Part shown: positions 5,676 to 58,029 of the stretch, in pieces
Layout of the letters: every line of letters starts with the position of its first letter
How positions within the stretch are numbered: position 1 is the stretch's first letter
Origin: Candidatus Uhrbacteria bacterium
Lineage (GTDB): Bacteria; Patescibacteriota; Patescibacteriia; JACQRZ01
DNA: 64,000 nt
Assembly: GCA_016186045.1 (NCBI GenBank)
Contig: JACPMJ010000005.1
Span: 7,143 to 71,142 of the forward strand
Direction of reading: 5' to 3'
Position numbers and translations under genes: made by a program
The notes under the pieces: generated by a model
What the model was told of the DNA's origin: nothing
What the model saw: the letters and a program-made list of their open reading frames with translations, nothing else
Database searches by the model: none

Positions 5676-5815
5676 AGGAGTGGGATAGTCTGTTATTTGG
5701 GCTTTTTTATTGTATCTGATATAATAAATTTATCAAGGAAGGCGAAGTGGATGAATAGTGGATGAAATACTTGATATTTTTTGGTTATTGTGGTGTAATA
5801 CTGGCATTGTGATAT

Positions 5816-5888
5816 GCGCCCATAGCTCAATCGGCAGAGCAACAGCCTTTTAAGCTGGTGGTTGAAGGTTCGATTCCTTCTGGGCGCA
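5816..5888 (+). tRNA. tRNA-Lys (anticodon UUU)
   Basis: Cloverleaf: acceptor GCGCCCA/TGGGCGC, D-arm TAGCTCAATCGGCAGAGC, anticodon loop CTTTTAA, T-arm GGTTCGATTCC, discriminator A; no encoded CCA. Confidence 0.85.
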
Positions 5889-5962
5889 GAATTGCGTCCC
5901 AAACGTTTTTTGAAAATAAAAAAAGCCGCAATAGCTTGTATCACGGCGTATAAGACTGGTTC

Positions 5963-19839: not shown

Positions 19840-21666
19840 TTACTTGAGATTTTTTACGATCTCTTCAAGAATATCTCCGAAATTGTTCAGGCAGTCCTCC
19901 ATGGTACTGAACAAAAGTTCGGTGGGATAGATATGCGGAGTACCGTGAACCCCAATGAACATGTGAATGACGATAATGCCGGACTCCTTGAGCTCACGGG
20001 AGATTCGCGCCGCGAGCTTCAGGTCATCCGGACCGTCATCGCAGAGCATGATGAGAACTTTACGCTTTCGCTTTGACTCGCGTAGTTTTTTTGCGGCGAC
20101 CGTGAGCATGTGCGTATCCGAGTTCCCATCATCCGCGCTAATGACAACGAATGACGGGAACTTACTGGGAGGGCCGTAATCGTAGATGATTTTTGAATTG
20201 AACGCCCAGATGTTTCCCGCACACACCGGATGAAGCGCCATAATCGCCTCAGAAAAGAGAACGGCGATTTGTTTTGCTTGTTCTATCTTCTCCCCAGCCA
20301 TGGATCCGCTTCTATCAATGCAGAGATGAATCTCCGCATCAATATTTCGCTCTTCCACGATGTCTTTTAGAAATCCGGAGAGGCCTGTTGCGATGCGTGC
20401 GACCTCTCGAGTATCCAGCTCCCCCTCGTCCTGCCCATAGAGGATGTATTCGGAGGGATTTTCGAGACGCTTGAGCTTTCGCACCAGCGGCTCTACAAGA
20501 TGTTGGACCGAAGCAAGAATGCGATTATACGCGGGAGCGTGAACGCCATTTCTTGGAATGCTTTTGACGGGAACCGTATCTTCCCTGCCTACGGAATGTG
20601 GTCCGCGCGGATACGCGGCGCGCATACCTCTCATCCACTTGACGAGATTATTGAGCGCCTGATTTCTTCCTACTTTGAGAGTTCCTGCCATGATTGCATT
20701 GAGATTTCCAAGGAGTGCGGGATCCAGTGGCTCTCCCATCTCAATACTCGCGGCCAAGAGACAGAGCGCGATGAACTTTTGTTCAAATTCCTTGCGAAGA
20801 TTTTTGAGATTCTGACTCTTTCCCTGTTCCTTTTCTTTTTCATCAGGATCGCCAAGAATCGCGTGGATTTCTTGGGCGGCCCAGAGGAGATAGTCCGGTG
20901 TCGCAGTGAGAAGAAGTTTCGGAGAGATCAGTTTCATCGCCTTATGCACCTTCCTGATGCGCGGGCGCTTGTGCCACTTTGCCGCGAAGAAAAAATCTTC
21001 ATAGGCATCAGTTGGTTTCCAATTCCGAAGAATTAAGGTGATATGCGCCTCTCCTGTTTTTTGCGTCGAAAGGTTTCGAGCGCTCCGAGAGAGATTCTTT
21101 TTCTGCTTTTCTTTTTTTGCCGATATTTTCGCGTGGAGGGGTTTCGGATGCTCTGTGTTTCGTATGTATGTTGAGAGTATTTGCGCAAGGGTTTGTCTGC
21201 GCGCCATCGTGGAGACATAGGCGAGACGCCTACGCAGTGTACTCGCAAATCCCGGCGCATGGCCTGCGGTTAGGATATCATCTTTGCGATCAAGGATGAT
21301 ATTGGTGATATGTTGTAAGATATCTCCGCCAAAGTCGTACGCCTCTGCAAGAAGTTTTGTCCCATAAGGGGAAAACTTGATATGACCGCTCTCATGATAG
21401 CCGGTTCCAAAACCGACCTCCTCATGTCCTTCAGTGAAAAACCATGGAGAGATACGTACCTCGGCGATGCAATCCGTACTTGCGGTCGGAATACTTGCAT
21501 CAAAGATAAGCCGGAACGGCTTACCGATAAGCGCGGTAAGGTGATCACAGAGAATCGGAAAGACGCGTTCAAGAATCTTTTTATCCCGTTCTTCTTTTGG
21601 AAGTGCGGCCTCTATCGCCACATCCATCTGATCAAGGGTATCTTGAATACGGGAAAAAGCGTTCAT
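19840..21666 (-). CDS. von Willebrand factor A (VWA) domain protein, CobT-like architecture (about 430-aa unknown N-terminal region + C-terminal VWA)
   Basis: MIDAS motif LCIDRSGSMAG, VWA beta-alpha pattern in C-terminal third; last gene of RT-ATPase-VWA module. Confidence 0.8.
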   Translation of the reverse strand: MNAFSRIQDTLDQMDVAIEAALPKEERDKKILERVFPILCDHLTALIGKPFRLIFDASIPTASTDCIAEVRISPWFFTEGHEEVGFGTGYHESGHIKFSPYGTKLLAEAYDFGGDILQHITNIILDRKDDILTAGHAPGFASTLRRRLAYVSTMARRQTLAQILSTYIRNTEHPKPLHAKISAKKEKQKKNLSRSARNLSTQKTGEAHITLILRNWKPTDAYEDFFFAAKWHKRPRIRKVHKAMKLISPKLLLTATPDYLLWAAQEIHAILGDPDEKEKEQGKSQNLKNLRKEFEQKFIALCLLAASIEMGEPLDPALLGNLNAIMAGTLKVGRNQALNNLVKWMRGMRAAYPRGPHSVGREDTVPVKSIPRNGVHAPAYNRILASVQHLVEPLVRKLKRLENPSEYILYGQDEGELDTREVARIATGLSGFLKDIVEERNIDAEIHLCIDRSGSMAGEKIEQAKQIAVLFSEAIMALHPVCAGNIWAFNSKIIYDYGPPSKFPSFVVISADDGNSDTHMLTVAAKKLRESKRKRKVLIMLCDDGPDDLKLAARISRELKESGIIVIHMFIGVHGTPHIYPTELLFSTMEDCLNNFGDILEEIVKNLK

Positions 21667-21728
21667 GGAGTTCTCCTTTCATTGTGAAAAGTTGTCAAAG
21701 ATCTTTATGGTTATTGTAATCCTTTTTT

Positions 21729-21845
21729 AGGGAATAGAGGGTGTCATCCTGAGTGATAACGAAGGATCCCGTTGGTATCATGTTTTTAACATCGGGATTC
21801 CTCTCCGCCAGCTGGCGGATCGGAATGACATACATAGTATTCCCT
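21729..21845. repeat. A-type palindromic element copy 1 (GTCATCCTGAGTGA...GGGATTCCTCTCCGCCAGCTGGCGGATCGGAATGACATACATAGTATTCCC)
   Basis: Right 49 bp identical (1 mismatch) to 38451-38499; core CCGCCAGCTGGCGG 21805-21818. Confidence 0.8.
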
Positions 21846-22062
21846 AAAAAAGAGGGGGAACGAACGTTTTTCATTCCCCGTGGTGGAGAGGTTGGATATT
21901 TGATGGGCTGCCCCGTAGCCGGTATTCCCGCGATCGGGAATACCGTGCCGAGCCCTCGCGTTCATCGCGAGGGTGAGGGGGCCACGCTTACCCTGTTTGA
22001 CCGCAGACTCCCTGATTCTGGTACAGAATCAGATCAGCGTCCACGCAAAAGCGTATGCAGTA

Positions 22063-22116
22063 GGGTCACGTCTAAGGTGACCTACCTTTTTCGCATAGTG
22101 CAAAACGGTCAAGAAA
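22063..22116. repeat. B element copy 2 (GGGTCACGTCTAAGGTGACCTACCTTTTTCGCATAGTGCAAAACGGTCAAGAAA)
   Basis: About 90% identical to 23592-23646; contains hairpin GGTCAC-GTCTAAG-GTGACC; lies just 3' of ATPase gene. Confidence 0.7.
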
Positions 22117-22183
22117 TATCCAATGCGCCGTCTGGTACAAACGGCTCTCCCCTGTATGTGATGTGAGAAAGAAAGTTTAGAGA

Positions 22184-23341
22184 TTATGGAATCTTCATGG
22201 TAAGAGTGGCAAACGCCTTCGCCGCCTCTGTCCCGGACTTCACATCGATGGTTCCATCCTTCAAAACTTTAATGTCGGATGAATACTTATCAAGAAGTCC
22301 TCGCACGACCGCGAGTTTGAGCTTCCATCCTCCGAGCATGAGGCGCGCGGTGTTTCTGCATCCGCGATAACTCGGGGCGTATGAGATAGCGCCGGAATGC
22401 GCGAGATCGCGTATTGCTCGTGCGACCTGCACGATTGCGAGCGCGGCGCGTTCCGAGATACCCACCTCATCCTTGAGTTTTTTCACCTCGAAGTCCTCCG
22501 GCATGGACTCCACCCAAATGAATCCAAAACGATCCTGAAGAGCGGTGCCGAGAGAGAAGACGTCTTGATGCTGTGCGCCTTGATTCATGGTCCCGATGAA
22601 GTGAATATTCGGCGAGAGTCTGATCGTAACACTCCCGTCGGTCGTAGTAATAGCAATTTGCCCGGTGTCATCAAAAAGACCGTGCATACCCTGATGCGAC
22701 TTTTCATGGATGCGATTGATCTCATCCAAGATGACGAGGAAGTGCGTGTTCAGTCCTTGAGCGTATGCGATATTCGCCCGCTCTACGTAATCTGCAAAGG
22801 CGGACTTGACAAACTTTGTTGATGCATTCACTGCGGCATCGGATCCAAACATGTCGTTGCCATGCTTGATCGTCTCAATGTCCACCTTGCAGGGTTCTTG
22901 CCAGTGAAGGGCGTGAGCCACCGCATAGCCAAGGGTCGTCTTTCCGCTTCCCTTATCACCGAGAAGGATGACGTTGGTTCCATTGTTCAGCCAGTTCAAA
23001 AGCTGGCTCAACATAAGTGGATCGGTCCAGTGGCCAGGCAATTCTTTGATCTTTTGCCAGTCCGCAAGCTCCGTTTTTCTGGAAATAAGTCGCACAAACG
23101 ATGTACTCGTTCCCTTGCGACTTTTTTCTTGTCGTTCAAGTTCAACATGCCAAATATCACCATCATTGACGGCAACATTTGTCTGGTTTATCACCTGAAT
23201 CGCGGGAGGAATGTCATATTCCTCAACAAACGAAAGACAAGACACACCCTGTTCGGTGGTATGCGCTCGGGCAAGAAGTAAGTCCGCCATTATGTATCCA
23301 TCCTTTCTTTCTGTATCTTTGTAAAAGTACGGTTCCTCCAT
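22184..23341 (-). CDS. AAA+ ATPase, MoxR/CbbQ/NirQ/CobS-like, with about 110-aa N-terminal extension
   Basis: Walker A GDKGSGKTT, Walker B FLVILDEINR, sensor region IGTMNQG, arginine-rich C-terminal helical lid. Confidence 0.85.
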   Translation of the reverse strand: MEEPYFYKDTERKDGYIMADLLLARAHTTEQGVSCLSFVEEYDIPPAIQVINQTNVAVNDGDIWHVELERQEKSRKGTSTSFVRLISRKTELADWQKIKELPGHWTDPLMLSQLLNWLNNGTNVILLGDKGSGKTTLGYAVAHALHWQEPCKVDIETIKHGNDMFGSDAAVNASTKFVKSAFADYVERANIAYAQGLNTHFLVILDEINRIHEKSHQGMHGLFDDTGQIAITTTDGSVTIRLSPNIHFIGTMNQGAQHQDVFSLGTALQDRFGFIWVESMPEDFEVKKLKDEVGISERAALAIVQVARAIRDLAHSGAISYAPSYRGCRNTARLMLGGWKLKLAVVRGLLDKYSSDIKVLKDGTIDVKSGTEAAKAFATLTMKIP

Positions 23342-23359
23342 TTCAGATTATTAGACTCT

Positions 23360-23490
23360 GTCATTGCGAGGGATCCGCCTCCGTCTCCGCCAATTGGCGG
23401 ATGGCGGAGGTGGAAACCGTGGCAATCCCAATTAGAGATCCCTCGTCCCTCGGGGGTACTCGGGATGACATTACTTCGCTCGGGATGACA
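23360..23490. repeat. A-type-related palindromic element in reverse orientation (GTCATTGCGAGGGATCC...CCGCCAATTGGCGG...CTCGGGATGACATTACTTCGCTCGGGATGAC)
   Basis: Core CCGCCAATTGGCGG 23387-23400; reverse complement of 3' end equals GTCATCCCGAGCGAAG start of A-type element. Confidence 0.7.
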
Positions 23491-23591
23491 CACGGCGACT
23501 TTGATCCTATGGCGCAAGAAATGTTTTGTAAAGAAATGCTTGCGCGGATGGGATTTCCATTTGATCGAGGACGGCTTGATCAGATACGGTT

Positions 23592-23646
23592 GGATCACGT
23601 CTAAGGTGACCTACCTATTTCGCATGATGCAAAACGGTCAAGGAAA
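23592..23646. repeat. B element copy 1 (GGATCACGTCTAAGGTGACCTACCTATTTCGCATGATGCAAAACGGTCAAGGAAA)
   Basis: Immediately 3' of RT stop codon (23657-23659). Confidence 0.7.
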
Positions 23647-23656
23647 CTGGTATTTT

Positions 23657-24901
23657 TTATTTGAAAGGAATGGACTCGTCCGCAGTATCCTTCTTCTTGC
23701 GACTTCTGCGCCGAGGTGGCTCCTCGGTGGCAATCTGTGTTTCCGCCGAAGTTTCCGAAGTTTGCGGCTCTGGAGTGACAGCAGTCGTTTTCTTGCGTCT
23801 GCGCGGTTTCTTACCTAACTCTCCGGCAAGCTCATTGAACTTGATGGTCTTGAGCTCGGTTTCGGCTTTTTCCGTAATAGCACGAACCTTGCTTGGGAGC
23901 TTGTCAGAATAGATATGGCGAAGATAGCCGATAGTGCCGGCGATCTCTCCGTATACCTGTTTGGTGGGCTCCGCCTTGATGACCGCGAGGAGCTTGTTGA
24001 TCCTCGCGCGGAACTGGTTTAGCTTGTTTGGGGCAAGCGTAATCCGTCCGTCCGGAGCCAAAACGATTCCCGTGATCACTGGTACTGCTCCGGTTTTTGG
24101 AGTGAAGTACTTCGTCTTGTCTTTCCGTTCATGAGGAAAAAATCCATTCTTTTTCATGACGGCAAGAATCCTCTTTCGGAGCTCCCCGGGAATTTCTTCC
24201 TCAAAGGAGATCGTGAGATCATCGCACCATACCGTGATGCGATACTCCTGAAGCGGTGTGGAGTTTTCCGAGATCAGCTTCCAGATATCCTGATCCATCT
24301 TACAGCAGACGATATCAAGGATGCGTGGACTGGTCGGAGGGCCTTGCGGGAGACGGTCATGGAGACAGACGAGATCCACGAGAGACTCGAGCATCTGTTT
24401 TATCTCTTCCGCCTCGAATGTCTGTCCGGAAAATTGCTTCAGCGCAAAGGTGAAGGGTTTGCGAAGATTCGCGCGGATCCTACTCCGATAGACACTGGGA
24501 AAGGCGTTCACAATGTCGATCGAAAAGGCTCGCTCATTTCCCGCGTGGTGCTCTGCGTTTGTCTTCACACTGCACCCTCGCTGGTTCCCGTGCCTGCAGA
24601 AATGTACCGGAATGGAAATTAGAAATCTGTTAAGGATCTTTCGCTGGACGCTTTTAAGTTCATCACAGGGAGCCGCATAACGTCGTACTCCTCTGCCCGG
24701 CCCCTTTGATTCCGCCCACTCGCGGTATGCCGCCTTTTGACGAAGCTTGTCGAGACAAAAATCCCACTCCTGCGTGGAGAGATGAAGCAAGAGTCGTAAA
24801 ATTCGCGCAAGTCGTTCTGGAAGCTCCAGAACGCTCTCGAAATCCTTGTACACCCATTCTTTGGGCGTATGACGCCGACGCCGACGTGTTGAAGTCGCCA
24901 T
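23657..24901 (-). CDS. reverse transcriptase, retron-type/retron-like
   Basis: SKGPGRGVRRYAAP (motif 1), NAEHHAG (NAxxH), FSIDIVNAFPSV (motif 2), LPQGPPTSPRILDIV, VWCDD catalytic box (YADD variant), KTKYF, VITGIVL (VTG); 130-aa C-terminal extension with basic tail. Confidence 0.8.
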   Translation of the reverse strand: MATSTRRRRRHTPKEWVYKDFESVLELPERLARILRLLLHLSTQEWDFCLDKLRQKAAYREWAESKGPGRGVRRYAAPCDELKSVQRKILNRFLISIPVHFCRHGNQRGCSVKTNAEHHAGNERAFSIDIVNAFPSVYRSRIRANLRKPFTFALKQFSGQTFEAEEIKQMLESLVDLVCLHDRLPQGPPTSPRILDIVCCKMDQDIWKLISENSTPLQEYRITVWCDDLTISFEEEIPGELRKRILAVMKKNGFFPHERKDKTKYFTPKTGAVPVITGIVLAPDGRITLAPNKLNQFRARINKLLAVIKAEPTKQVYGEIAGTIGYLRHIYSDKLPSKVRAITEKAETELKTIKFNELAGELGKKPRRRKKTTAVTPEPQTSETSAETQIATEEPPRRRSRKKKDTADESIPFK

Positions 24902-38355: not shown

Positions 38356-38404
38356 AGGGATAGTACTTAGTTCTTAGTTATCAGTTCGCAGTTATTTTTT
38401 ATAT

Positions 38405-38499
38405 GTCATCCTGAGTGAAGCGAAGGATCCCGTTCGTGATAAAGAGCTGGGATTCCTCTCCGCCAGCTGGCGGATCGGAATGACATACATAGTATACCC
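38405..38499. repeat. A-type palindromic element copy 2
   Basis: GTCATCCTGAGTGAAGCGAAGGATCC...CCGCCAGCTGGCGGATCGGAATGACATACATAGTATACCC; marks the gap-proximal edge of the GC-rich island. Confidence 0.8.
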
Positions 38500-38586
38500 T
38501 ATTTTTATAATCTTCACAAAATAAAAAAAGACTTATTGCATTTTGCGATAGGTCTTTGAAATTTTTTTTGCGGAATTACGGGGATG

Positions 38587-38651
38587 ATCCCTACCTTACC
38601 ATGCCTTGCCCCGCCGGACCAAACCATACCATACCGGACCTCACCGCACCT
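38587..38651. repeat. C-type array: strict 5-nt periodic (NNNCC)x12 tract beginning CCCTACCTTACCATGCCTTGCC
   Basis: CC dinucleotide every 5 nt read directly. Confidence 0.75.
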
Positions 38652-38715
38652 TAGATAAAATATGAGGACGAAATATCTTTCCTAAATATTCCGCCCTCTG
38701 AACTATGAGTGACGC

Positions 38716-39381
38716 CTATGCGGCGCTCTCTTCGGTGTCGCTCTCACTTTCACTTGGCAAGACCAGAGCCTCGAACACGAGATCCTTTTCCTCCTCGTAC
38801 TTGAGGACGTCGAACTTGGTGACGATGAACTTGCCGAATCGCGGCCGATAGTCGCCAATGCCATTGTGTTGGCCTGCGCGGACGAGAATGCTCTGAAGCA
38901 CCTCTACCGGCAAGATGCGTTCGTCCAAAACGGAGAGCGTGAATTCCGTGCACCACTCCTCCAAGCGAGGCCGTGCGCGAAGCACACGGGCGGTACCGAT
39001 ACGTGCCGGACGCTTGTCGATGGCGTAGTCGTAGAGCTTCTCTCCCTTGAGATTCGTGATTCCCGAATACTCTGGAAAGACGCCTACGCCGCCCTTCACC
39101 GGATCCTTGAAGGTCTTCTTTCCCTGCCCCTTCACTTGGAAGGAGCTTGCCGCCTTTACCATGGTTTGGTAGACGTGCTCTCCGGGAACGCAGAGCTGGC
39201 CCTTCTTGTCGCCATTCGCCGGGTCAAGGCGATAGGCTCCCTGCTCCGCCTCCACCTCCGGGAGTGGCGGACCTGTCTTTCTGGACTTGACCGTGCCCTC
39301 CAGCTCGGCCGTGGCCTCCATGGAGAACTTGTGCATGAGAAGAGGGGCAGATCCTTGGATTTTCACTGCGACTTCGTACAT
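38716..39381 (-). CDS. hypothetical protein (221 aa) in GC-rich island, flanked by direct C-type arrays
   Basis: ORF with GC-rich codons; no motifs recognised. Confidence 0.5.
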   Translation of the reverse strand: MYEVAVKIQGSAPLLMHKFSMEATAELEGTVKSRKTGPPLPEVEAEQGAYRLDPANGDKKGQLCVPGEHVYQTMVKAASSFQVKGQGKKTFKDPVKGGVGVFPEYSGITNLKGEKLYDYAIDKRPARIGTARVLRARPRLEEWCTEFTLSVLDERILPVEVLQSILVRAGQHNGIGDYRPRFGKFIVTKFDVLKYEEEKDLVFEALVLPSESESDTEESAA

Positions 39382-39423
39382 CTCTCGTACCTCCTTACCT
39401 TAAATTGAGAGAGTTTTCGAATG

Positions 39424-39512
39424 GGCCCTACCTTACCGTGCCTTACCACGCCTTACCACGCCTAACCTCGCCACGCCCAGCCAGACCGCAACCCCACCAG
39501 ACCAAACCCTAT
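39424..39512. repeat. C-type array: (NNNCC)x13 decaying to NNNAC, begins GCCCTACCTTACCGTGCCTTACC
   Basis: Same orientation and 5' sequence as 38587 copy. Confidence 0.75.
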
Positions 39513-39667
39513 ATGAGTATAAAGCGGGCTGGTAAGCTGATTTCCTTATAAAAAGGATACATTGAGGACGAGCTTAGTATAGAACACATTGTATGGTTTT
39601 GTCAAGGGTCAATACCCTGAAAAAAGAAAAAGGGTTCGACGTATTTGTCGAACCCGTGGGTTTTTGT

Positions 39668-41908
39668 TTAGGAGAGACTGAATACGAGATTATCCAGACT
39701 TCCAAGTAGGAACGGAGTATCACTCAGTGCGCACGCGGCGATTTTTTCGCACGTGAGTGAGGTGAGTGATGCCGTGTATCTTTCTTTGGACGGTACGGGA
39801 CTTTCCTTCAACTCCTGCTGTGCCTCCTCGCACAATGGAAGGTGAATGGCGAGATGCTCGCCGCCAAAGGAGATACCGAAGGCGCTGGCGTCAGAAGGAT
39901 TCAGCCGAATCGCTTCACCCCAATCTTCCCTCCGGGAGAGATGCATACGCATGGGAACGTATATGTCGGAATACGTCGCAAGGACCATGTGGTGATCCAT
40001 GTATGCCGACATCATCTCGAGGATATACGGTTCGAGTACTCCGCCTTCGAGCAAAACACCCGCCTCCTTTACGGTCATTGCTCGGCCGTCGGCGACAATC
40101 GTACTCATGATGATCGGTTTGAGAAGTTCAGTCGCGATAGTGGTCGGGATTCCCAGCATCTTTTTTTGAAGAGAGGGATCCGGCACACACACCGCGGTTG
40201 CGGAATAGTCTACCCGCCGCTCATAGAAGTCTCTCGCGGCATTATCGATCTCCATATCGATACTCTGAAGAAGACGGCCAAATGAACCCTGGAGTGTGGT
40301 ATTGCGCATCAGCGTTTCTACCGCCTCCTGTACCATTTGGCACTCGTTTCTGATGATGATCTCTGGGGCACCCATCTCCATCAGACGACTGACACGATTA
40401 TTCCTACCGATAATGCGTCGATACAGATCGTTGAGATCTGATGTTGCGAAAGTTTTTGCATCGTATCGGACCATCGGTCGGAGGTTGGTGGGCAGAACCG
40501 GGAGATTGCGTATAAGGAAGCGTGAGATATCAACCCCTCGCTCCATGCACACGCTCTCGAGTGCCGCCACTCCCCAGTCGCTTGGTTCGGCATCGTCATC
40601 ATCATCCACTATGGATCGTTTGTAATCGATGACAGCGAGAATGCCCTCGATATCTCCGATGCCGACTTGTGCAATAGTTTGTGCACATTGCAGCTTGAGC
40701 CATGGATGGACAACCGGAATCGCAAGTTTGATATGACCAAACCTGCTATTCGGTGCCAAGTGTGTATCAACTTGGACGCCGCACTTCATGCACGTGATAC
40801 CCTTATGCCTGATGCCCTCGAGTCTGCCACAACTGCACTTCAGATCTCGGCCGTTTCCGAAGATCGCCTCGCAGAAGAGACCTTCGTGTTCTGGCTTCAA
40901 TGTTTTGTAGCTGATGGTCTCTGGACGTTTTACCTCGCCGTGTGACTGCTTGACGATCTGCGCATCGGTTATGCGCATGATATGTAGAGCACCATCTTCA
41001 ACTTTCGTTGAGAAACCGCACCCAACCATCAATGTTGCAAGTCGATGTGCGGAGTGAGTCGGTGGTGTTTCCAATGCGGGGACGGGATTTCGGAGAAGCA
41101 ATGCTTCATATGCTGTTGCTCGCGCGCGTATGCCGCTTGATTTGACCATAGCCATTTCCACAGCGTTCTGTACGTATCCGAGGTGCGCAAACTTTTGGAT
41201 GTTGACCTTTTGTCCTGGATTTGGATGTTCCGATAGGGGCTGTTGAGTGACTAGGCTATACCGTCCAGTCGAACGTCCAGCCAACTTGTCTTCCATGCGC
41301 CGCGTTATTTTCGTGAGTTTCACGGCACGAAATGCAGGACCATCCGAATCCGGAACTGGAAGTCCCTTGAGGATATCAGCGTCTGGATGGACGAGAATAT
41401 CCGTACCAAAGGAAAAGCATCCCTTGGCGCTGAACCCTGCTACGACCAAGGTATGGCCGTGGTTATCATTAAGGACATCGCCGACAGCCAGCTTGCGCTG
41501 GATGAGGAGGTCGATGGTTACGACCTTACCCTTGTTGAAATCCTTGATCTCTACGTTTGTGACCAACGCCTCATCCCGCTGTTTTGCGATCGCGACGATG
41601 GGTTGTGTCTGGGCAAGCGTTGCGGCGAGTACCGAGCGCTGTGCGACTTTCGTACCGACCATCACTACGCCATTCTTATCCAGATTCGCACCCGGAAAGT
41701 ACCCCTCGAAGTCTGCGGGTTTTGCGCTTTTTGCCGGCGCATCGATAGAGAATGGTGACTGGCGCTCCAGAAGCGCGGTGTCAAACCGCCCCTGATCGCG
41801 CACCTCCTCTGATACGATGCAGGCGTTGCCGGTCAGCTGCGGATATGTCCGCAGAAGGTTTTTTCCGGCTATTCGGAGTCTGAGTCTTGATTTCCCATCC
41901 AGGATCAT
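39668..41908 (-). CDS. RNA polymerase clamp-module homolog: RpoB C-terminal-like region fused to RpoC N-terminal-like region, catalytic residues not conserved
   Basis: RSTGRYSLVTQQPL (beta), EVKRPETISYKTLKPEHEGLFCEAIFG, zinc finger CSCG...CMKCG, FATSDLNDLYRRIIGRNNR clamp helices, RVDYSATAV; NADFDGDQM replaced by AYMDHHM. Confidence 0.6.
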   Translation of the reverse strand: MILDGKSRLRLRIAGKNLLRTYPQLTGNACIVSEEVRDQGRFDTALLERQSPFSIDAPAKSAKPADFEGYFPGANLDKNGVVMVGTKVAQRSVLAATLAQTQPIVAIAKQRDEALVTNVEIKDFNKGKVVTIDLLIQRKLAVGDVLNDNHGHTLVVAGFSAKGCFSFGTDILVHPDADILKGLPVPDSDGPAFRAVKLTKITRRMEDKLAGRSTGRYSLVTQQPLSEHPNPGQKVNIQKFAHLGYVQNAVEMAMVKSSGIRARATAYEALLLRNPVPALETPPTHSAHRLATLMVGCGFSTKVEDGALHIMRITDAQIVKQSHGEVKRPETISYKTLKPEHEGLFCEAIFGNGRDLKCSCGRLEGIRHKGITCMKCGVQVDTHLAPNSRFGHIKLAIPVVHPWLKLQCAQTIAQVGIGDIEGILAVIDYKRSIVDDDDDAEPSDWGVAALESVCMERGVDISRFLIRNLPVLPTNLRPMVRYDAKTFATSDLNDLYRRIIGRNNRVSRLMEMGAPEIIIRNECQMVQEAVETLMRNTTLQGSFGRLLQSIDMEIDNAARDFYERRVDYSATAVCVPDPSLQKKMLGIPTTIATELLKPIIMSTIVADGRAMTVKEAGVLLEGGVLEPYILEMMSAYMDHHMVLATYSDIYVPMRMHLSRREDWGEAIRLNPSDASAFGISFGGEHLAIHLPLCEEAQQELKESPVPSKERYTASLTSLTCEKIAACALSDTPFLLGSLDNLVFSLS

Positions 41909-42023
41909 CGGATTCCTCCTTGCATCCCGTCTTCCGACAGGTAAAGCCCGGTTTTCCCGAGCGTGTCAAAGAACCGATAGTAATGTACATGCATGAATTA
42001 TATATTGTCAAGGAGCTGTACTG

Positions 42024-42150
42024 AGGCCGTTGCAAAACTCAGCTAAGCATGTCATTCCCGCGAAGGCGGGAATCCAGTTCTTTTAATTTAAGAAGAATTC
42101 TGGATCCCCGATCAGGTCGGGGATGACAATCGGAGGGTTTTGCAACGGTC
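42024..42150. mobile_element. MITE-like insertion with about 15-bp TIRs (AGGCCGTTGCAAAACTC / GAGGGTTTTGCAACGGTC) carrying a GTCATTCCCGCGAAGGCGGGAATC...GGGGATGACAA palindromic element; flanked by 18-bp direct repeats TGTCAAGGAGCTGTAC(TG/AG) at 42006-42023 and 42158-42175
   Basis: TIRs and direct repeats read directly. Confidence 0.7.
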
Positions 42151-42195
42151 TCTGTACTGTCAAGGAGCTGTACAGCGCGAGTACATAGGTAACAC

Positions 42196-42672
42196 TTACT
42201 TGTCGCCAAAGCGCTTTTTATATCGCGCAGTAATCTCATCCACGAGATACTTTAAGAAAGTATCTTCTCTTACCGTTTTTAGTACCGGCTCCTCGAGAAT
42301 ATCGAGCAGAAATACTCCTGAGGCGACGAGTGTGAAGCAGATGCCGCATTCATCCGCATGCATGTCTCTCGGCTTTCCTGTACTTACGGCGATCGCCGTC
42401 CGAAGAATTTGTACGTCGCTGAAATGCGGATTTTCTCCGACCGATCGGATTCCGATCGAACGAAGAATCATGATCATCATCTCCTCACCCATCTGATTTT
42501 TCTTCACATTTCCTCCTTCGAGAATTCTTTTTAATCCCATCCATGTGCGCACACAGATATATGGATTAGCCAAAAATCCTCTCTTCAGGAAATCTACTAT
42601 ACATAGTAGTGATTTCCTGGAGAGAAGGCGCGAAGGTTTCTCTATGTCCTTCGCGCAAATATTCCTGAGCAC
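42196..42672 (-). CDS. hypothetical small protein (158 aa; 5' end overlaps hairpin repeats, true start may be internal)
   Basis: ORF only. Confidence 0.3.
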   Translation of the reverse strand: MLRNICAKDIEKPSRLLSRKSLLCIVDFLKRGFLANPYICVRTWMGLKRILEGGNVKKNQMGEEMMIMILRSIGIRSVGENPHFSDVQILRTAIAVSTGKPRDMHADECGICFTLVASGVFLLDILEEPVLKTVREDTFLKYLVDEITARYKKRFGDK

Positions 42673-42701
42673 CTATCAGTCAAGAACTACTCGTTCTCCT
42701 A

Positions 42702-44165
42702 CTATGGCACGAGGCGCTTGTAGCGACGATTGATATATCGCCGCATGAATCCGGAAACTTGCGCCTCCGCATGGAACTTAGCGTGCCCGATACTCATACG
42801 ACGCCCATCACTGACGAAGCAGTTCAGGAAGTCCTGATCCGTCATCGTGGTAACCACCTTGAGTCGCTCATCGTCAAGGATTGCCTTGAATTCTGGCACG
42901 AGTGCGAGTCGTGACGGAATTTTCAGGTCATTCCCAAGATCAACGGCGTTCCCGAATAGTTTATTGGGATCTACTCTACCGAGTCGCGCGGCCATGGCTC
43001 TGAAGTGAGTCATAATCTGACTCCTGTAGCGAGTCTTATACGGCTCTTGCACGAATACCGCCTCGGGCACGTGGCGATAGTCATGGATGAAAGCAGCATG
43101 CGCCAGCGCATTAGCGATAACAGTATCTGCTGTCGCCAACTCGCGAGCCACAAGCTCCTCCATTCGCCCCGTGAATTCATTCGGAAAGAGATACACAAGA
43201 CGCTGAAATGTTTTGCGATCGTCCCCTTTTGGCACACCCGGAAGAGCATCGAAGAAAGCGTTGATGATATCCCTCCTCGTCTCTTCGTCATAGTCGAGGT
43301 ACCAGCACCGCTGGCTGACGACGCTGATATCCCCGCTCCAATAGAGGTACCGTCGCGACGGAACCTCCATGCCACGCAGGAGCTCCTCCACGATCAGATA
43401 GATCAGCTGATCGCCCTCCAAGATACGATTCTTTTGGGCTTCGTTCTGGAAAGCGAAATGCCGACTTGCATAATCGATCACCTCTCGAATGAGCGCTGGC
43501 TCGATCCGTCCATCCGATGTGAATGCCTTGGACCGGAACTCGATCACGTCGCGAATGTCCGCAACTGGAATAGGAATGAACCCGACGTGTCCGTCCCGCC
43601 GTTTCTCCCGTTGGGCGATCGCGGCAGCCGCTTGCTTCCGACGAAGTGACCCTGTGGCGTACTGGACAATGAAATCAACCACCGGAAAGGACCGCTCGAT
43701 CTGAACGGGTTCCGTCCTATTCTCGTTGACAGGAAGGTCAATCACTGTGCGTCCGAGGCACGCCGCCGAGAAAATCGGCGGGATGCCAGCCGCTCTGAAG
43801 TCGCGTGCGCGCTGTTCGATCTTGTCTAGCAGCGCTGACGATGCCATCTGTTCACCAGCTAAAACGAGTTTTAGGTGATCGTAATGTGGGCCGTAAAAAT
43901 ATCCCTCACACATCACGAGAAAGCGCCGCGCTCGCTGACACGCAGATTCATATTCCCGTAAGTCAACGAATGTATATACATTGTCTCGCTTACGGTAGAG
44001 GCGCTTGATACCCGCCTGATTGAATACCTCTTCAGAGATACTTCGAACACTTAGGTTACCAGCAAGCTGGCTTATCTGAGCTGCCAATTGAGAAGTGCTC
44101 CGGGCCATTGCTGGCCTCCTTTCAAATTTCAATGAAATTTCAATGAACTTTCCCCTCACCTTCAA
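42702..44165 (-). CDS. hypothetical protein (487 aa), GC-rich island
   Basis: ORF only; no motif recognised. Confidence 0.5.
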   Translation of the reverse strand: MKVRGKFIEISLKFERRPAMARSTSQLAAQISQLAGNLSVRSISEEVFNQAGIKRLYRKRDNVYTFVDLREYESACQRARRFLVMCEGYFYGPHYDHLKLVLAGEQMASSALLDKIEQRARDFRAAGIPPIFSAACLGRTVIDLPVNENRTEPVQIERSFPVVDFIVQYATGSLRRKQAAAAIAQREKRRDGHVGFIPIPVADIRDVIEFRSKAFTSDGRIEPALIREVIDYASRHFAFQNEAQKNRILEGDQLIYLIVEELLRGMEVPSRRYLYWSGDISVVSQRCWYLDYDEETRRDIINAFFDALPGVPKGDDRKTFQRLVYLFPNEFTGRMEELVARELATADTVIANALAHAAFIHDYRHVPEAVFVQEPYKTRYRSQIMTHFRAMAARLGRVDPNKLFGNAVDLGNDLKIPSRLALVPEFKAILDDERLKVVTTMTDQDFLNCFVSDGRRMSIGHAKFHAEAQVSGFMRRYINRRYKRLVP

Positions 44166-44359
44166 AACACCACTAATTGATGTCCTGAAGAGAAAGTGGG
44201 AGCAAATCAGTACGAATACTATCTACTCCCAAATTACTTCAACCCCGTATCTTTTCACGCGCCGGCGATTATCCCGGCAAACTTCGCGACGGCCCCTTCG
44301 ACAAGGACGCTCGTCACCTCCTCGTCCATGCAGTCATGAATATACTCCCTTCTTCTTGG

Positions 44360-45055
44360 CTATACTGACGTTGGAACGTAAAACTCAAGAATGTCGATAG
44401 TTCGTTCGATGCCGTCTCGTATTGTGTCTATCATGGAGACAAGTTCCTCTATAGATCGATACGCGAGCGGTGGTGCTTCTGGAAGAACCAGCGACGGTTC
44501 GCTCGACCCTTGTCCGAAGAGCTGTGAGATAATCCTCCTACCATTACTTGGTAGGGTACGCGCCTCTCGAAGTTGATTCTCGTACTCCCACCGAAGATCC
44601 CGGATCAAATTTCTGTACTCAATACGAGCCAGATCCTCTACCCAGACTTTATCCTCCTTAACCTCAATGATCATCTCACCTTTTAGACGTTCTGGCCCGA
44701 GCAGATATCTATCACTCTCTTTGTCATACCGACAACCCACATAATTTGCTATGGAGCCTAAGTATAGAGCTCTATGGCCTGCCCAACGAATCCGTATGAC
44801 GGTTCTGCTAAAAGCAATGTAGAGTGATCCCTCCATATTGTCTCCTTGGGCATGAAAGAGTTGACCACGTTCATGAACGATCCCCATGTTGGGGTTTACC
44901 TTATGTCCCATCCTCCAATGTCCAACGGAAACAAGACCGCCAATCTTTTGGAGTTTCTTGGTCTCCGAGAGTACATCGAGTACATGCATCAGCTCGTTAT
45001 ACTTTTCAGTGAGATTACTCACAGACTCCTGAACGGCCACGTTACAAATTTCCAT
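44360..45055 (-). CDS. hypothetical protein (231 aa), GC-rich island; His-rich patch GHWRMGHKVNPNMGIVHERGQLFH
   Basis: ORF only. Confidence 0.45.
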   Translation of the reverse strand: MEICNVAVQESVSNLTEKYNELMHVLDVLSETKKLQKIGGLVSVGHWRMGHKVNPNMGIVHERGQLFHAQGDNMEGSLYIAFSRTVIRIRWAGHRALYLGSIANYVGCRYDKESDRYLLGPERLKGEMIIEVKEDKVWVEDLARIEYRNLIRDLRWEYENQLREARTLPSNGRRIISQLFGQGSSEPSLVLPEAPPLAYRSIEELVSMIDTIRDGIERTIDILEFYVPTSV

Positions 45056-45420
45056 GAAATCTCCAGAGAAGGCTATAACCCCACTCGGCCTTTACCGAAT
45101 GCAAGGCGGATTTTCACCCTCACTTCAGAGCATGCAGAGAGAGCTCCGATGCCCTGAAGAGAAGGTGAAATATTTTCTATATCTAAAACATGGCTATTCT
45201 CCTTTCTTCAAGGGTTGAAGATTGTAAGGAACAATTTGTATTACTATAATCCAAATATAACAGAGAGAAATAACATGTCAATAGCAAATTGACCACTTTT
45301 CATTATAATTTCAAGATTATTCTGACCATAATAAAAGGATTTACTACAATAAGAGGAAAATATGTCAGATGTATTTGACATTGTTAAATTATATGATATA
45401 ATTAAATCAACATTCTCTGT

Positions 45421-46185
45421 ATGTATCAAACATTACTCACACAACTCGGACTCGCAGAAAAAGAGGCGACCATCTATGAAACGCTCGTAGAAAAGGGCTC
45501 ATTGACTGCTGGACGCCTACTGAAAGAACTTCCCTACAAACGAGGAGATATGTATTACCTTCTTTCACGATTAAAGGAAAAGGGATTAGTGACAGATGTC
45601 CTTTCCAAAAAGGGAGTTGCAGTATTTACAGCTGCGAATCCCACAACTCTTGAATCACTCGCAGAAAAAGTTCTTGAAAAGGCTCAGCAGATAAAAACAG
45701 GTCTGGATGCCGCACTTCCAAACCTGAAATCTCTATACAATCTCGCAATGGAGAAACCTGGCATGCGCTTCTATGAAGGTGAGGCGGGAATATGGAAACT
45801 ACTCAATGACACTCTTGACTCAAAAACCGAACTTCTCTTTTTGGGTGATCACGACGCAATTAACACTCATATTCCGACACTCAATAAAGATTATGTACTT
45901 AAAAGAAAAAAACGACACATCAAAAAGCGTCTTATCCAATTTGATACGCCATCCGCTCGCGCATTTGCACGTACCGGTGATGAATTCACCGAGGTTCGAC
46001 TTATTGCCACGGATGCGTCAAACATCCGAAGTTTCATGCATATCTATGATAACAAGGTATCGTATGTAACGTTTTTGGAAACCGCATTCATCGGCGTTCT
46101 TATTGAAGATCCAATGTTCTATCAACTTCAACGAGTAATGTTTGAATATATGTGGAAAACTGCCACACGTTTTACGAATTCCTAA
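45421..46185 (+). CDS. TrmB-family transcriptional regulator
   Basis: N-terminal winged HTH LGLAEKEATIYETLVEKGSLTAGRLLKELPYKRGDMYYLLSRLKEKGLV. Confidence 0.7.
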   Translation: MYQTLLTQLGLAEKEATIYETLVEKGSLTAGRLLKELPYKRGDMYYLLSRLKEKGLVTDVLSKKGVAVFTAANPTTLESLAEKVLEKAQQIKTGLDAALPNLKSLYNLAMEKPGMRFYEGEAGIWKLLNDTLDSKTELLFLGDHDAINTHIPTLNKDYVLKRKKRHIKKRLIQFDTPSARAFARTGDEFTEVRLIATDASNIRSFMHIYDNKVSYVTFLETAFIGVLIEDPMFYQLQRVMFEYMWKTATRFTNS

Positions 46186-48611
46186 CCACGATACTCAAAT
46201 ACAAGTTGAGCGTGCTCTGCGTTTTTTGTGTATCGAGAAAGAACGTAGCCGTGTGCCAATGGGGCGAATATCTCCTGCATTATACGGGGATCGAATAGAT
46301 CACGCGTGTCTACTTCAAATGCGATTATCGATTTTTTTTCGGCAATTTGCTCTGATATGTCGAGCAGTGAAAAAGAAAGGAGCGGCGACGGAAATTCCGG
46401 CTTTGATCTTGATTTGATTTGCCGATCAATAATAAGAACGCCGTCCTGCTCTTCTTTATCATAATGGAAACTAACTCCCTCGAATTTTGCCTGCTCGATA
46501 TAGGAGGCGGCAATATCTTTCCACACCGATGTCTTTCCACGAATTAATGCGTCTTTTGACTCCTTCTCCAGCGCCTGCATAATAATAGAAGGATAGAATC
46601 CCGACCCTCTGTATGCAGTCTCGAAAAACAACGCGCTCCAAAATTTTTCATGCGGTGCCGTGTCGGTGAACACCGCCGATCCGATAAGAGGTTTCGGAGT
46701 TTTATCTTCTCGCAAAATCACATAAAAACGGCTTTTATTTTCCGGATCATTTACCCGCGCGTCCAGCTCTGCAAGAAGGCGGTCAACTTTTGCATTGTCG
46801 CCCCACTCTTTGCGCAGACTTTTCTCGTACCCCGCATGCACCATTCTCGTTATTTCTTTATGGGTGCGCATTTCTTTGGAGGTAAACTCATGCAAGTGGA
46901 ATAGTTTTACGTCTTCTAGGTCGATATGCTCCCCTTTCAGTGCCGCAACCCCCGCGCAGATCATAGACGCCTGCTCGTCAATCATTTCCAGGTCTGCTAA
47001 CAACTCTTTTTGATTCTTTTTTTTCACTGCTCCATGCAATAATTCTTTGCCGCGAGCAAGGAGATTGACAGTGAATGCACGCACAACTGGTTCTGCTTTC
47101 GGGCCTCCTCCAAAATTTTCTCGAAGATAATCAGCCGCGCGGTAAGCTGTCTGGGCGATTTTCGCGTATTTCTGAAAGAGTGGTGCTGCCGCATTTCCAA
47201 ATCGCCTCCCGATATCAATAAGTTTTGCGCCAAATTCTAGATCTCCTTCAGTTGCAAGAAGCGAAGTAAGCGCGTCATTGCCAAATTGTTTTACAAAATC
47301 TCTCATGGAAAGAGCGTGCATAATATCTTGCTGACTAAAAAAACTTAAAAAATTACGTTGCACCCACAATGGCTGATGATTTAATGTAATACCGAAATGA
47401 TTTTCAATAATCTCGCGCATCTGCAGACACATAAGATACGAATATTCATCGTATGACGCGGGATCAAAAGAAGCGGCTCCAGGATGCAGTGCAGTAAAAA
47501 AATCCTCCTTCGCTAATGGGTAATGGGGAGAATGGCCCCTCTTCTCTGCGAAGGAAAGAATATTTACTTCTTCCCCAGGGAATAAGTGCGATATATAGTT
47601 TCGAAGCCACACTTCCAAATGAGGGGACATCATGATTGCGGCAGTGGCATTGGCTTTCGCTGCGTTCAGCGCTTCGTAATCCTCATCAGTAGCAAAAAAA
47701 ATCGCAGACATTCTCCCTGTTTTCTGATATTCAGCGATATAGTGCGGCGCGAGCTGATAATAGTGTGCGTTTGGATTGTTATCTTTTCCAATAAGATAAC
47801 CACTCTCATTTTCTTCTTTGAAATGTTTTACCCGATAACGTTCAAAAGAATCGATGTGACACCTTTTGCCACCGATCTCCTTACCCTCGATAAAATAACC
47901 AAGCTGCAAATAGCGACCATAAATAAGAAAATTGCTATTTCTATGACGCGCCATAATATCGGCAATTCCGTAAAATTTCTTAGCACACTCGCTTTGGATA
48001 TCATGTCTGTCTTGGGGTAGAGATGCAATCAAGGCGCTGCTATAATGTTCAAAAAAATCGAGAATCTTATGGGAAAGCACATTGGCATACGGCCGATTAA
48101 TGAGCTGCAGTAATATAAAACCCTTTGATGCAGACGGCGATAACGAGTCGAACGGATATAATACTTCCTTGTTAACCTGCAAAAGCTCACCAGATGCTTT
48201 ATTATCTGCTCGATATTGGGACGCTACTCCAAGAAGTGTAAGGAGAGAAAGAGAGAGTTTTGTATTGGGTTGTATTTGATTCGCGATTTCAGCCTCAAGG
48301 CTCCTGATAAGCGCGGGGCGTTCTTGTTCGGGTGCATATTCAAGAGTCGCGCGGACATTACGGATAATTTCGAAAGTTTCGCTTCCATCCTGATCGATAA
48401 AAAAAATAGAGAAATCTTTTGGCAGCAATTTCATAGCATCCTCCTCCGTCGGCACCTCCTGTATCAGCTCGCAGAGCGCAATTAGCTCCTGCACGGCATG
48501 CTTAGGGAGATCGAATCCCTCTTTTCTAAATCTTGTAAATGTCTCTATTAGTTCCTGCCGAATCGACGGAGGCGTTTCTGGTAATCTTTGTGATTCGTGT
48601 TCTGATCGCAT
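46182..48611 (-). CDS. hypothetical large protein (809 aa)
   Basis: ORF only. Confidence 0.5.
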   Translation of the reverse strand: MRSEHESQRLPETPPSIRQELIETFTRFRKEGFDLPKHAVQELIALCELIQEVPTEEDAMKLLPKDFSIFFIDQDGSETFEIIRNVRATLEYAPEQERPALIRSLEAEIANQIQPNTKLSLSLLTLLGVASQYRADNKASGELLQVNKEVLYPFDSLSPSASKGFILLQLINRPYANVLSHKILDFFEHYSSALIASLPQDRHDIQSECAKKFYGIADIMARHRNSNFLIYGRYLQLGYFIEGKEIGGKRCHIDSFERYRVKHFKEENESGYLIGKDNNPNAHYYQLAPHYIAEYQKTGRMSAIFFATDEDYEALNAAKANATAAIMMSPHLEVWLRNYISHLFPGEEVNILSFAEKRGHSPHYPLAKEDFFTALHPGAASFDPASYDEYSYLMCLQMREIIENHFGITLNHQPLWVQRNFLSFFSQQDIMHALSMRDFVKQFGNDALTSLLATEGDLEFGAKLIDIGRRFGNAAAPLFQKYAKIAQTAYRAADYLRENFGGGPKAEPVVRAFTVNLLARGKELLHGAVKKKNQKELLADLEMIDEQASMICAGVAALKGEHIDLEDVKLFHLHEFTSKEMRTHKEITRMVHAGYEKSLRKEWGDNAKVDRLLAELDARVNDPENKSRFYVILREDKTPKPLIGSAVFTDTAPHEKFWSALFFETAYRGSGFYPSIIMQALEKESKDALIRGKTSVWKDIAASYIEQAKFEGVSFHYDKEEQDGVLIIDRQIKSRSKPEFPSPLLSFSLLDISEQIAEKKSIIAFEVDTRDLFDPRIMQEIFAPLAHGYVLSRYTKNAEHAQLVFEYRG

Positions 48612-48810
48612 AGACTATGTTTAACGACTCAAAAGAAAGATTTTTCTGATACTCACATAGTATCATACATATTTCTCCAAAACAATTTTATTGAGACATA
48701 TCGGTAACACTGGGAGAGTCGCCAGACTCTACTACCTAACGTATCTCATTTTTTACAGCGGAAACCTATGAAAAACTAAAATACCCGCAGAATATGCGGA
48801 TATTTTAAGT

Positions 48811-48883
48811 GGGTTCTCGGGTCAAGCCCAAGCCTGTCCTCGGACTTGATCCGAGGAATGGCGCATATATCGGGAATGACAAG
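48811..48883. repeat. palindromic family member (GGGTTCTCGGGTCAAGCCC...CCTCGGACTTGATCCGAGG...GGGAATGACAAG)
   Basis: Hairpins read directly; sits between tsf stop and the 809-aa gene. Confidence 0.6.
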
Positions 48884-48887
48884 ATAT

Positions 48888-57774: not shown

Positions 57775-57867
57775 GGTGTGGTGTGACGTAGTCGTGCAAG
57801 ACGGGGTGGGGTTGGGTCTGGCTAGGTATGGTTTGGCTAGGCGAGGCGAGGCACGGTAAGGTAGGGC
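57775..57867. repeat. C-type array in inverse orientation ((GGNNN)n ending ...GGCACGGTAAGGTAGGGC)
   Basis: Reverse complement begins GCCCTACCTTACCGTGCC like the 39424 copy. Confidence 0.75.
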
Positions 57868-57956
57868 TTATTCAAAGGAATGAGCTCTTTTTAATTTGAC
57901 GAAAAATAGGTGTTTGATAAGGTAAAAGCGGTGAAAAACAGAATCGTCTAAGAACT

Positions 57957-58029
57957 GTCATCCTCGGGCTTGACCCGAGGATCCAGAGTTCATAGATCCC
58001 GGATCAGCGGAGGCGGATTGGGATGACAA
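57957..58029. repeat. palindromic family member (GTCATCCTCGGGCTTGACCCGAGGATCC...GCGGAGGCGGATTGGGATGAC)
   Basis: Termini GTCATCC / GGATGAC, internal hairpin CCTCGGGCTTGACCCGAGG. Confidence 0.7.

Follow-up and report, generated by a model that had tools for sequence, protein, structure and literature searches.

The closest described counterpart of one of the loci treated here is VIPR (Viral Interference Programmable Repeat), a newly reported system that combines Vipr proteins, which belong to the RAMPs (repeat-associated mysterious proteins), with vrRNAs of at least 4 and typically 9 to 16 GGY/NN units, and that has been proposed as an ancestor of the CRISPR RAMPs (bioRxiv 10.64898/2026.04.26.720920). 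The vrRNAs read double-stranded DNA through their NN positions, with one skipped base, and repress competing phages; the system acts by transcriptional repression, its accessory proteins interact with DNA, and its loci "typically" include a vap gene, which defines their type, from I to VII (bioRxiv 10.64898/2026.04.26.720920). We analyzed a window of 64,000 nt from a Candidatus Uhrbacteria bacterium (assembly GCA_016186045.1, contig JACPMJ010000005.1, positions 7,143 to 71,142 of the forward strand), in which the interval between the rpsB-tsf and gap-pgk-eno genes holds a vipr gene with GGY/NN tracts, a gene for a catalytically dead RNA polymerase fusion, and an operon divergent from the gene of a TrmB-family regulator.

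We propose, with a probability of roughly 0.75, that this region is a turnover-prone junction between rpsB-tsf and gap-pgk-eno carrying three independent modules, namely a vap-less VIPR locus, a dead two-barrel polymerase gene and a TrmB-linked operon. The initial annotation had listed five minus-strand open reading frames (ORFs) in this region, of 221, 746, 158, 487 and 231 amino acids (aa), all of which we find where it placed them, and had read them together as one accessory island rich in G+C (GC). The vipr locus is a known kind of system and a new, unusual member of it: conserved, chromosomal and vap-less.

The vipr gene (HYW94_00845; 38716–39381, minus strand) encodes the 221-aa protein, a Cas7/Csm3-like RAMP that matches phrog_4652, a mainly phage-borne family with 128 phage records. 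An AlphaFold2 model built from 47 homologues has a mean predicted local distance difference test score (pLDDT) of 88, and a Foldseek search with this model gave 72 PDB matches at E ≤ 0.001, with all 50 listed matches being CRISPR RAMP or effector-complex chains. The protein is small, with a single RNA recognition motif (RRM) core, a G-loop and a thumb, as expected of a Vipr. A promoter-like TTGACA-18-TATACT sequence is present at 39605–39576, upstream of a GGY/NN tract in the vipr leader.

This leader tract (39413–39511, minus strand), a candidate vrRNA of 4 + 13 units, is found downstream of the promoter-like site and ahead of the start codon, and a second candidate of 13 units (38581–38650, minus strand; the "C-type array" of the initial annotation) follows the 3′ hairpin of vipr. 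An orphan vrRNA-like tract, also of 13 units, is found at 57805–57879 on the plus strand in a divergent intergenic region. A period-5 GGY scan detected only these three tracts in the window and none in 20 shuffles. The three share the 3′ end ...GGCAY GGTAA GGTAG GG(C/A)YY AT, with no conserved folded tail demonstrated among them, where VIPR systems have an invariable, structured one after the repeats; the orphan ends in GGCAC GGTAA GGTAG GGCTT, as do the tracts at vipr, and the candidate vrRNA 3′-end sequence is GGTAAGGTAGGG. When the orthologous tracts of two relatives (compared loci L005 and L008) are aligned in register, the GG columns are conserved and the NN positions variable.

The association of gene and tract extends well beyond this lineage. 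GGY/NN tracts accompany vipr homologues in L005, L008 and the viral contigs L002 and L014, and they stand beside vipr homologues in seven independent lineages, including the cultured phages LESphi2 and DSL-LC04. Immediately upstream of the phrog_4652 gene there are three tracts in LESphi2 (OQ594955; L062, 3584–3898) and two, one of them 174 nt long, in DSL-LC04 (OR003939; L060, 3637–3894). The DSL-LC04 gene carries the label "helix-turn-helix transcriptional regulator", which looks like a misannotation of a Vipr. Arrays of 11–14 vrRNA-like units are present downstream of vipr in L011 (6700–9060) and L013 (6660–7980). Each L011 unit consists of a conserved handle of ~40 nt, 7–20 GGTNN units (unit matrix G.98, G.95, T.90, N, N) and a 7-bp hairpin (GTGGCTC...GAGCCAC), and the array is divided into several transcription units by promoters and terminators within it. 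In L013 the tract is the same but the conserved segment is another one; the arrays of both loci have promoters of their own, conserved handles and hairpins. Rfam contains no match for either the region or the arrays of L011. Other identities considered for the tracts were iterons, G-quadruplex arrays, sites for Rho loading on the other strand and protein-binding repeats of the TRAP or CsrA type; all were dropped, since the link with a RAMP gene and the GGY/NN code of the preprint fully account for the tracts. Further tracts were noted in the relatives between rpmE (L31) and rpsB, on the rpmE strand (L005, 8044–8123; L008, 2824–2994, minus strand), as well as at 337–396, 1288–1377 and 4910–4984 of L005; they have the appearance of orphan vrRNA genes scattered over the host chromosome.

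By analogy with the characterized systems, we infer for the vipr locus RNA expression, formation of a ribonucleoprotein, and a target. Vipr would be expressed from its own sigma-70-like promoter, with one tract in the leader, a second after the 3′ hairpin and the third at 57.8 kb; Vipr subunits would coat the GGY/NN tract, double-stranded DNA would be recognized through the variable NN dinucleotides, one base being skipped in each unit, and binding by this complex would repress transcription of a competing phage or element. The locus matters as a VIPR system in a tiny genome of the Candidate Phyla Radiation (CPR), fixed beside glycolysis genes across diverged relatives with neither accessory gene nor surrounding prophage: a phage weapon appears to have been retained by a host whose capacity for regulation and defense is very small, and the three guides of the locus could lead directly to the identification of CPR phages.

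We compared the junction with its counterparts in related genomes. Two groups of close relatives (L005–L007 and L008–L010) encode homologues of the 221-aa protein with 86–91% identity, in each case immediately upstream of gap-pgk-eno. The order in the first group is rpsB-tsf-221-gap, with nothing between tsf and the 221-aa gene; five unrelated genes separate the two in the second. The tsf-to-gap interval is variable in its content: L005 has ~110 bp there, L008 has other genes over 5.1 kb, and the window has 9.4 kb. Because L008 carries a different gene set at the same site, we regard the junction as a general point of turnover. Colinearity with L005 in blastn ends at 48887 and restarts at 39477, which defines the segment differing from the closest relatives as 39478–48886 (9.4 kb). 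This segment is absent from the syntenic site in L005; it leaves out the 221-aa gene, which the relatives have, and takes in the TrmB gene and an 809-aa gene, both of ordinary GC.

The same comparison bears on the alternative that 39478–48886 is a single integrase-less insertion that brought the dead polymerase gene and the 809aa-TrmB-231-487 block in together. The near-empty site in L005 agrees with such an event, and recombination could have been mediated by a partial palindromic element at the tsf border (~48.81–48.88 kb) together with full copies at 42050 and 38404. We nevertheless consider it unlikely. L008 has other genes at the site; in L003, the block is followed by different genes and no dead polymerase, and the L004 contig ends 290 bp past the 487-aa homologue; the composition within the segment is mixed (GC 0.41–0.53); and its two borders share no repeat of at least 9 nt. 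There is no tRNA gene next to the segment, the sole one in the window being at 5815–5889, and no integrase, recombinase or transposase was matched among the five ORFs and the 809-aa protein in Pfam, PHROGs, NCBIfam and PADLOC, with TrmB scanned by Pfam only. Three independent modules at a turnover-prone junction remain the better account.

The second module is the 746-aa gene (39668–41908, minus strand), whose product is 100% identical to Candidatus Uhrbacteria HYW94_00850 and which encodes a catalytically dead fusion of the C-terminal part of RNA polymerase β with the N-terminal part of β′, a minimal two-barrel module. The protein matches Rpb2_6, Rpb1_1 and Rpb1_2 in Pfam; among the NCBIfam models, rpoC_TIGR scores 282 bits (cut-off 963.5) over profile positions 219–463 of 1147, and rpoB scores 33 bits (cut-off 801) over positions 1131–1220 of 1238. 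Domain and PDB alignments assign residues 29–283 to the last third of β, residues 314–437 to β′ residues 15–141, including four zinc-finger cysteines, and residues 466–701 to β′ from the clamp helices through the active-site barrel; the protein ends 45 residues further on. It is far from full length, lacking the bridge helix, the trigger loop and the N-terminal two thirds of β, a loss that we take, from E. coli numbering, to be of the first ~800 β residues. The β′ motif NADFDGD is replaced by GISFGGE, and the β motif GDKxAGRHGNKG by GDVLNDNHGHTLVV, where the consensus of the protein's family is GDVLxDxxGxxxVVA. Both double-psi barrels, the clamp helices (FATSDLNDLYRR) and the RVDYS switch-2 motif are kept. 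Judged from its sequence, the protein cannot polymerize. The β double-psi barrel and β C-terminal clamp are joined to the β′ zinc finger, clamp helices and barrel in one chain that ends just past the dead active site.

Relatives of this protein are rare. A word-indexed search returned only the protein itself and canonical β′, and an exhaustive HMMER search found ~20 clusters of 560–940 aa that align end to end with the same architecture. Their members start and end at the same points, share an LTxLDxxxLG tail and have lost the catalytic motifs of both barrels, the β′ triad being gone in 19 of 19 other members; the zinc finger (C358, C360, C373 and C376, all invariant), the clamp helices and RVDYS are retained across the family. 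A genome scan with a profile of the family C terminus hit mostly canonical rpoC with GEAIRLHP, and only L016 matched through the C-terminal tail (query residues 9–114). NCBIfam and PADLOC hold no model specific to the family, we found no literature on an inactive β-β′ paralogue, and a scan of viral contigs for the family found none. In four contexts (a Planctomycetota metagenome-assembled genome [MAG], GCA_028716745.1 and two Logan contigs) the gene stands alone with no recurrent neighbor, and no mobile genes, vipr homologue or GGY/NN tracts are near it. In the MAG (L016, CAWATZ010000002.1, 5620–10452), the family member appears frameshifted in the assembly; there, and in this single case of the four, its end overlaps the next gene, whose 716-aa product has two metallo-beta-lactamase domains, and a DUF4058 protein is encoded ahead of it.

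Seven further candidates (P0002, P0003, P0010, P0024, P0047, P0104 and P0120) were rejected as relatives on account of their intact NADFDGD and near-canonical sequence. These "fusions" are frameshifted or miscalled rpoB-rpoC junctions, several with low-complexity out-of-frame stretches, and public protein sets hold many such artefacts, which can mimic real β-β′ fusions.

The 746-aa protein is a divergent member of a rare and apparently undescribed family, and it most likely acts as a non-catalytic scaffold that binds nucleic acid or a partner. We tentatively suggest, at slightly less than even odds, that it represents an undescribed and ancient family of dead minimal two-barrel polymerases (~560–940 aa, with the LTxLDxxxLG tail), encoded as a stand-alone gene in the Planctomycetota MAG and other metagenomic contigs, that would serve as a non-catalytic regulator, for example by binding promoter DNA or RNA-DNA hybrids or by titrating a polymerase partner. 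If confirmed as undescribed, the family would be a rare pseudoenzyme derived from a universal transcription enzyme and a natural minimal two-barrel scaffold.

An opposing view is that a fragment of an rpoB-rpoC junction was captured and that the ORF is what is left of it, a fossil in decay and with no function. Its colinearity with rpoB at its end and rpoC at its start, the missing catalytic residues, an N-terminal part eroded relative to the family and its standing as a singleton above 50% identity could all be read in this way, but we find the idea doubtful. A 2.2-kb frame has stayed unbroken at only 30–40% identity to the canonical subunits, and its codon positions follow the coding pattern GC1 > GC3 > GC2. 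The gene has a strong ribosome-binding site (AAGGAGGA), a promoter-like site supplied in part by the repeat of a MITE-like (miniature inverted-repeat transposable element) insertion, and a terminator-like hairpin with a T-run (39632–39655, minus strand). Furthermore, start, end and C-terminal tail are common to ~20 other clusters from unrelated genomes, which suggests that the architecture is old and maintained and not a recent capture.

The third module is centered on the TrmB-family regulator (45421–46185, plus strand; Pfam PF01978, E = 1.8e-10), which is 72–74% identical to its homologues in L003 and L004. Next to it, the 809-aa protein (46182–48611, minus strand) has homologues of 75–83% identity in the same two loci; it gave one marginal PHROG match (E = 0.024) and none in Pfam, NCBIfam or PADLOC. 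The block 809aa-TrmB(divergent)-231-487 is colinear in both. The first gene of the operon divergent from TrmB encodes the 231-aa protein (44360–45055, minus strand); L003 and L004 each have a homologue in the corresponding place, with 48–55% identity. The next (HYW94_00860; 42702–44108, minus strand), listed as 487 aa, encodes 468 aa when begun at M20 (ATG at 44108), a start taken from alignment with its two homologues; the public annotation gives 281 aa, or 58% of the ORF 42702–44165. Those two homologues, at 59–66% identity and both adjoining TrmB, are the only ones in 5.8 billion proteins, and the protein has no PDB sequence match in a profile search and none in the viral-contig scan. The doubtful small third ORF (42196–42540, minus strand) is unsupported as called at 158 aa; a start at M45, which leaves ~114 aa, is more likely, and tblastn found no match for the ORF in any locus compared. 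The 231-, 487- and 158-aa ORFs have no match in Pfam, PHROGs, PADLOC or NCBIfam. The initial description of the region as devoid of recognizable housekeeping functions was too strong in view of the 221-aa RAMP and of the 746-aa protein, which derives from RNA polymerase β/β′.

The divergent promoter-like sites between TrmB and the 231-aa gene score 12/12 and 11/12. A palindrome, GTCAAT-N5-ATTGAC (45277–45293; GTCAATAGCAAATTGAC), overlaps the −35 element of the operon; it is unique in the window, has a single counterpart in each of L003 and L004 at the equivalent site, and appears in 0 of 60 other loci. This conserved palindrome is a probable TrmB operator. Double hairpins (z −4.5 to −9.4) precede the 231-aa gene, the 487-aa gene and the small third ORF (minus strand, at 45095–45175, 44140–44255 and 42560–42690, respectively), as well as the second and third genes in L003 (2455–2560 and 3995–4135). 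The base of the second stem is conserved (CUUCUCUUCAG...CUGAAGAGAGG) and its apex varies; the double hairpins may be processing or regulatory sites. According to our model, TrmB would be transcribed divergently from the 231-aa gene, the 468-aa gene and perhaps the small third ORF, with the palindrome over the −35 serving as operator.

The composition data address the initial interpretation itself, which takes 38.4–45.1 kb for a single GC-rich island that entered between gap and tsf by horizontal acquisition or has its origin in a mobile element. In 400-nt windows, GC is 0.50–0.58 across most of 38.6–44.0 kb against ~0.40–0.46 in the flanks, so GC is indeed raised over 38.7–44.2 kb, and the long antisense ORFs that had been noted are present on the plus strand (180, 182 and 214 aa). 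When the five ORFs are taken singly, no more than three are conspicuous. Relative to 47 genes outside the region (GC 0.453 ± 0.034; GC at third codon positions, GC3, 0.460 ± 0.061), the 221-aa gene (GC 0.583, GC3 0.730; z ~3.8 and 4.4) is the only strong outlier. The 746-aa gene (0.527, 0.568) and the 487-aa gene (0.532, 0.590) are moderate (z ~2), and the 231-aa gene (0.468, 0.466) and 158-aa ORF (0.451, 0.491) are ordinary. Nor is the GC of the 746- and 487-aa genes unique in the window, since genes at 19.8–24.9 kb equal them (GC 0.49–0.52, GC3 0.52–0.58). That second moderately GC-rich stretch (19840–24901) also holds a palindromic element at 21742.

An atypical-composition test marked 3 of 7 genes in the segment as GC-rich, with the same excess in relatives; this excess, being conserved, gives no date for acquisition. 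The 221-aa gene has a GC of 0.55–0.56 versus 0.39–0.43 in both groups of relatives, and in L003 and L004 the 231- and 487-aa homologues, neighbors there of the TrmB and 809-aa genes, have 0.59–0.64 versus 0.46–0.50. High GC is therefore a stable, old property of these three genes and no sign of recent arrival. The conserved synteny in relatives that the initial annotation had itself named as evidence to the contrary is what we observe for the same three ORFs (221, 231 and 487 aa).

A palindromic element had been placed at the gap-proximal island boundary, and the succession near gap is as described, with an element at 38404–38485 (the "A-type" element of the initial annotation) followed by the C-rich array at 38581–38650. 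A regex scan shows that these elements form a dispersed family of 73–89 nt with termini TGTCATYC/GRATGACA, with four full copies in the window (21742–21830, 38404–38485, 42050–42128 and 57956–58028) and a partial one (~48813–48882) at the tsf border of the variable segment. They are scattered through the window and do not mark an island; L005 and L008 lack a full copy at the position of the one at 38404. The MITE-like structure with direct repeats reported inside the region is confirmed as a nested insertion (42003–42173) with 19-nt direct repeats (18 of 19 positions identical), 21-nt inverted repeats and a palindromic core at 42050–42128; one repeat copy provides the −35-like TTGACA of the 746-aa gene. 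Copies at or near both segment borders and inside it could promote rearrangement. The element at 57956–58028 comes after the orphan tract (57805–57879), as at the gap boundary.

Some of these observations suit the single island: raised GC, five ORFs on one strand, MITE-like elements at 38404 and 42050, a tsf-gap interval that differs among relatives, and a 221-aa gene to which the label "mobile-element-derived" applies in a distant sense, because phrog_4652 is mainly phage-borne. Set against them are the position of that gene beside gap in relatives with an equal GC excess, the travel of the 231- and 487-aa genes with ordinary-GC TrmB and 809-aa genes elsewhere, where they are GC-rich too, the ordinary GC of two of the five ORFs, the spread of palindromic elements across the window, and the failure to find an integrase or transposase, an adjacent tRNA gene or border repeats. 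The reading as one island is thus only partly supported, in its raised GC and variable interval, and mostly wrong as an interpretation; we judge it quite improbable. For first-pass scans, the case is a caution that raised GC and unknown genes do not make an island. The idea that the dead polymerase is a lineage-specific Vap-like partner of vipr, for example coupling Vipr DNA binding to transcription interference, has in its favor the position of its gene immediately upstream of vipr on the same strand and the DNA-interacting accessory proteins of the transcription-repressing VIPR systems, but it is very improbable given that vipr occurs without the 746-aa gene in L005 and L008, that four other family members have no vipr homologue or tract nearby, that a terminator and a separate promoter stand between the two genes, and that RNA polymerase is unmentioned in the VIPR report (bioRxiv 10.64898/2026.04.26.720920).

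Several points weigh against our proposal of three modules at a turnover-prone junction. The search for tract targets in the window and 62 loci (0.82 Mb) gave best NN matches of 65–73%, no better than shuffled guides and under the threshold of at least 80% applied in the preprint, and IMG/VR contains no exact match to the first 10 units of the two vipr-flanking guides, the orphan guide not being scanned; because no target was found, the vipr locus could be an inactive relic. In the window, as in L005 and L008, vipr is next to gap with no gene separating them and has no vap accessory gene with it, an absence that is not disqualifying because the preprint says only "typically". For the 746-aa protein, there is no relative above ~37% identity, and the erosion of its N-terminal β part relative to the family makes decay possible. 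AlphaFold2 with three sequences gave no usable model of the 487-aa protein (pLDDT 48). Finally, the difference at the junction may reflect either insertion here or loss in the relatives.

Comparison with known systems brings out what is particular to each module. The TrmB-linked operon resembles those of sugar-responsive TrmB-family repressors with divergent operons in its N-terminal TrmB winged-helix domain, in the divergence of its promoters and in the palindrome that covers the −35 of the target; it differs in target genes that have no recognizable sugar-metabolism or transport domains. Like bacterial RNA polymerase β/β′, including the Helicobacter and Wolbachia fusions (NCBIfam PRK09603 and PRK14844), the 746-aa protein runs from the end of β into the start of β′; those fusions measure ~2,800–2,900 aa, whereas the 746-aa protein has nothing past the β′ barrel. 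The phage two-barrel polymerases (YonO of SPbeta, crAss-like gp66 and the tail-fused RNA polymerase of P23-45) also place both double-psi barrels in one polypeptide of reduced size. They keep the catalytic aspartates and are very distant from the cellular subunits. In the 746-aa protein, by contrast, the aspartates are gone, and its origin from bacterial β/β′ is clear (E = 1e-84 to rpoC).

The vipr locus differs from the Csm3, Cmr4 and Cas7 backbone subunits of class 1 CRISPR systems in having no CRISPR array and no other cas genes beside it, in an RNA periodicity of 5 nt as opposed to 6 nt, and in a sequence identity of only ~10%. From described VIPR systems, it differs in being chromosomal in a CPR bacterium and fixed beside gap across relatives, with no surrounding prophage genes and no vap, and in having just two local tracts and one orphan, with a negative target search. 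It shares with them a single small RAMP with one RRM core, phage homologues with tract arrays beside the gene (as in the Pseudomonas prophage LESphi2), conserved sequence at the tract 3′ ends, and 13-unit tracts of conserved GGY and variable NN, within the range of 9–16 units, of which one stands upstream and one downstream of the gene, the layout of SUSP1.

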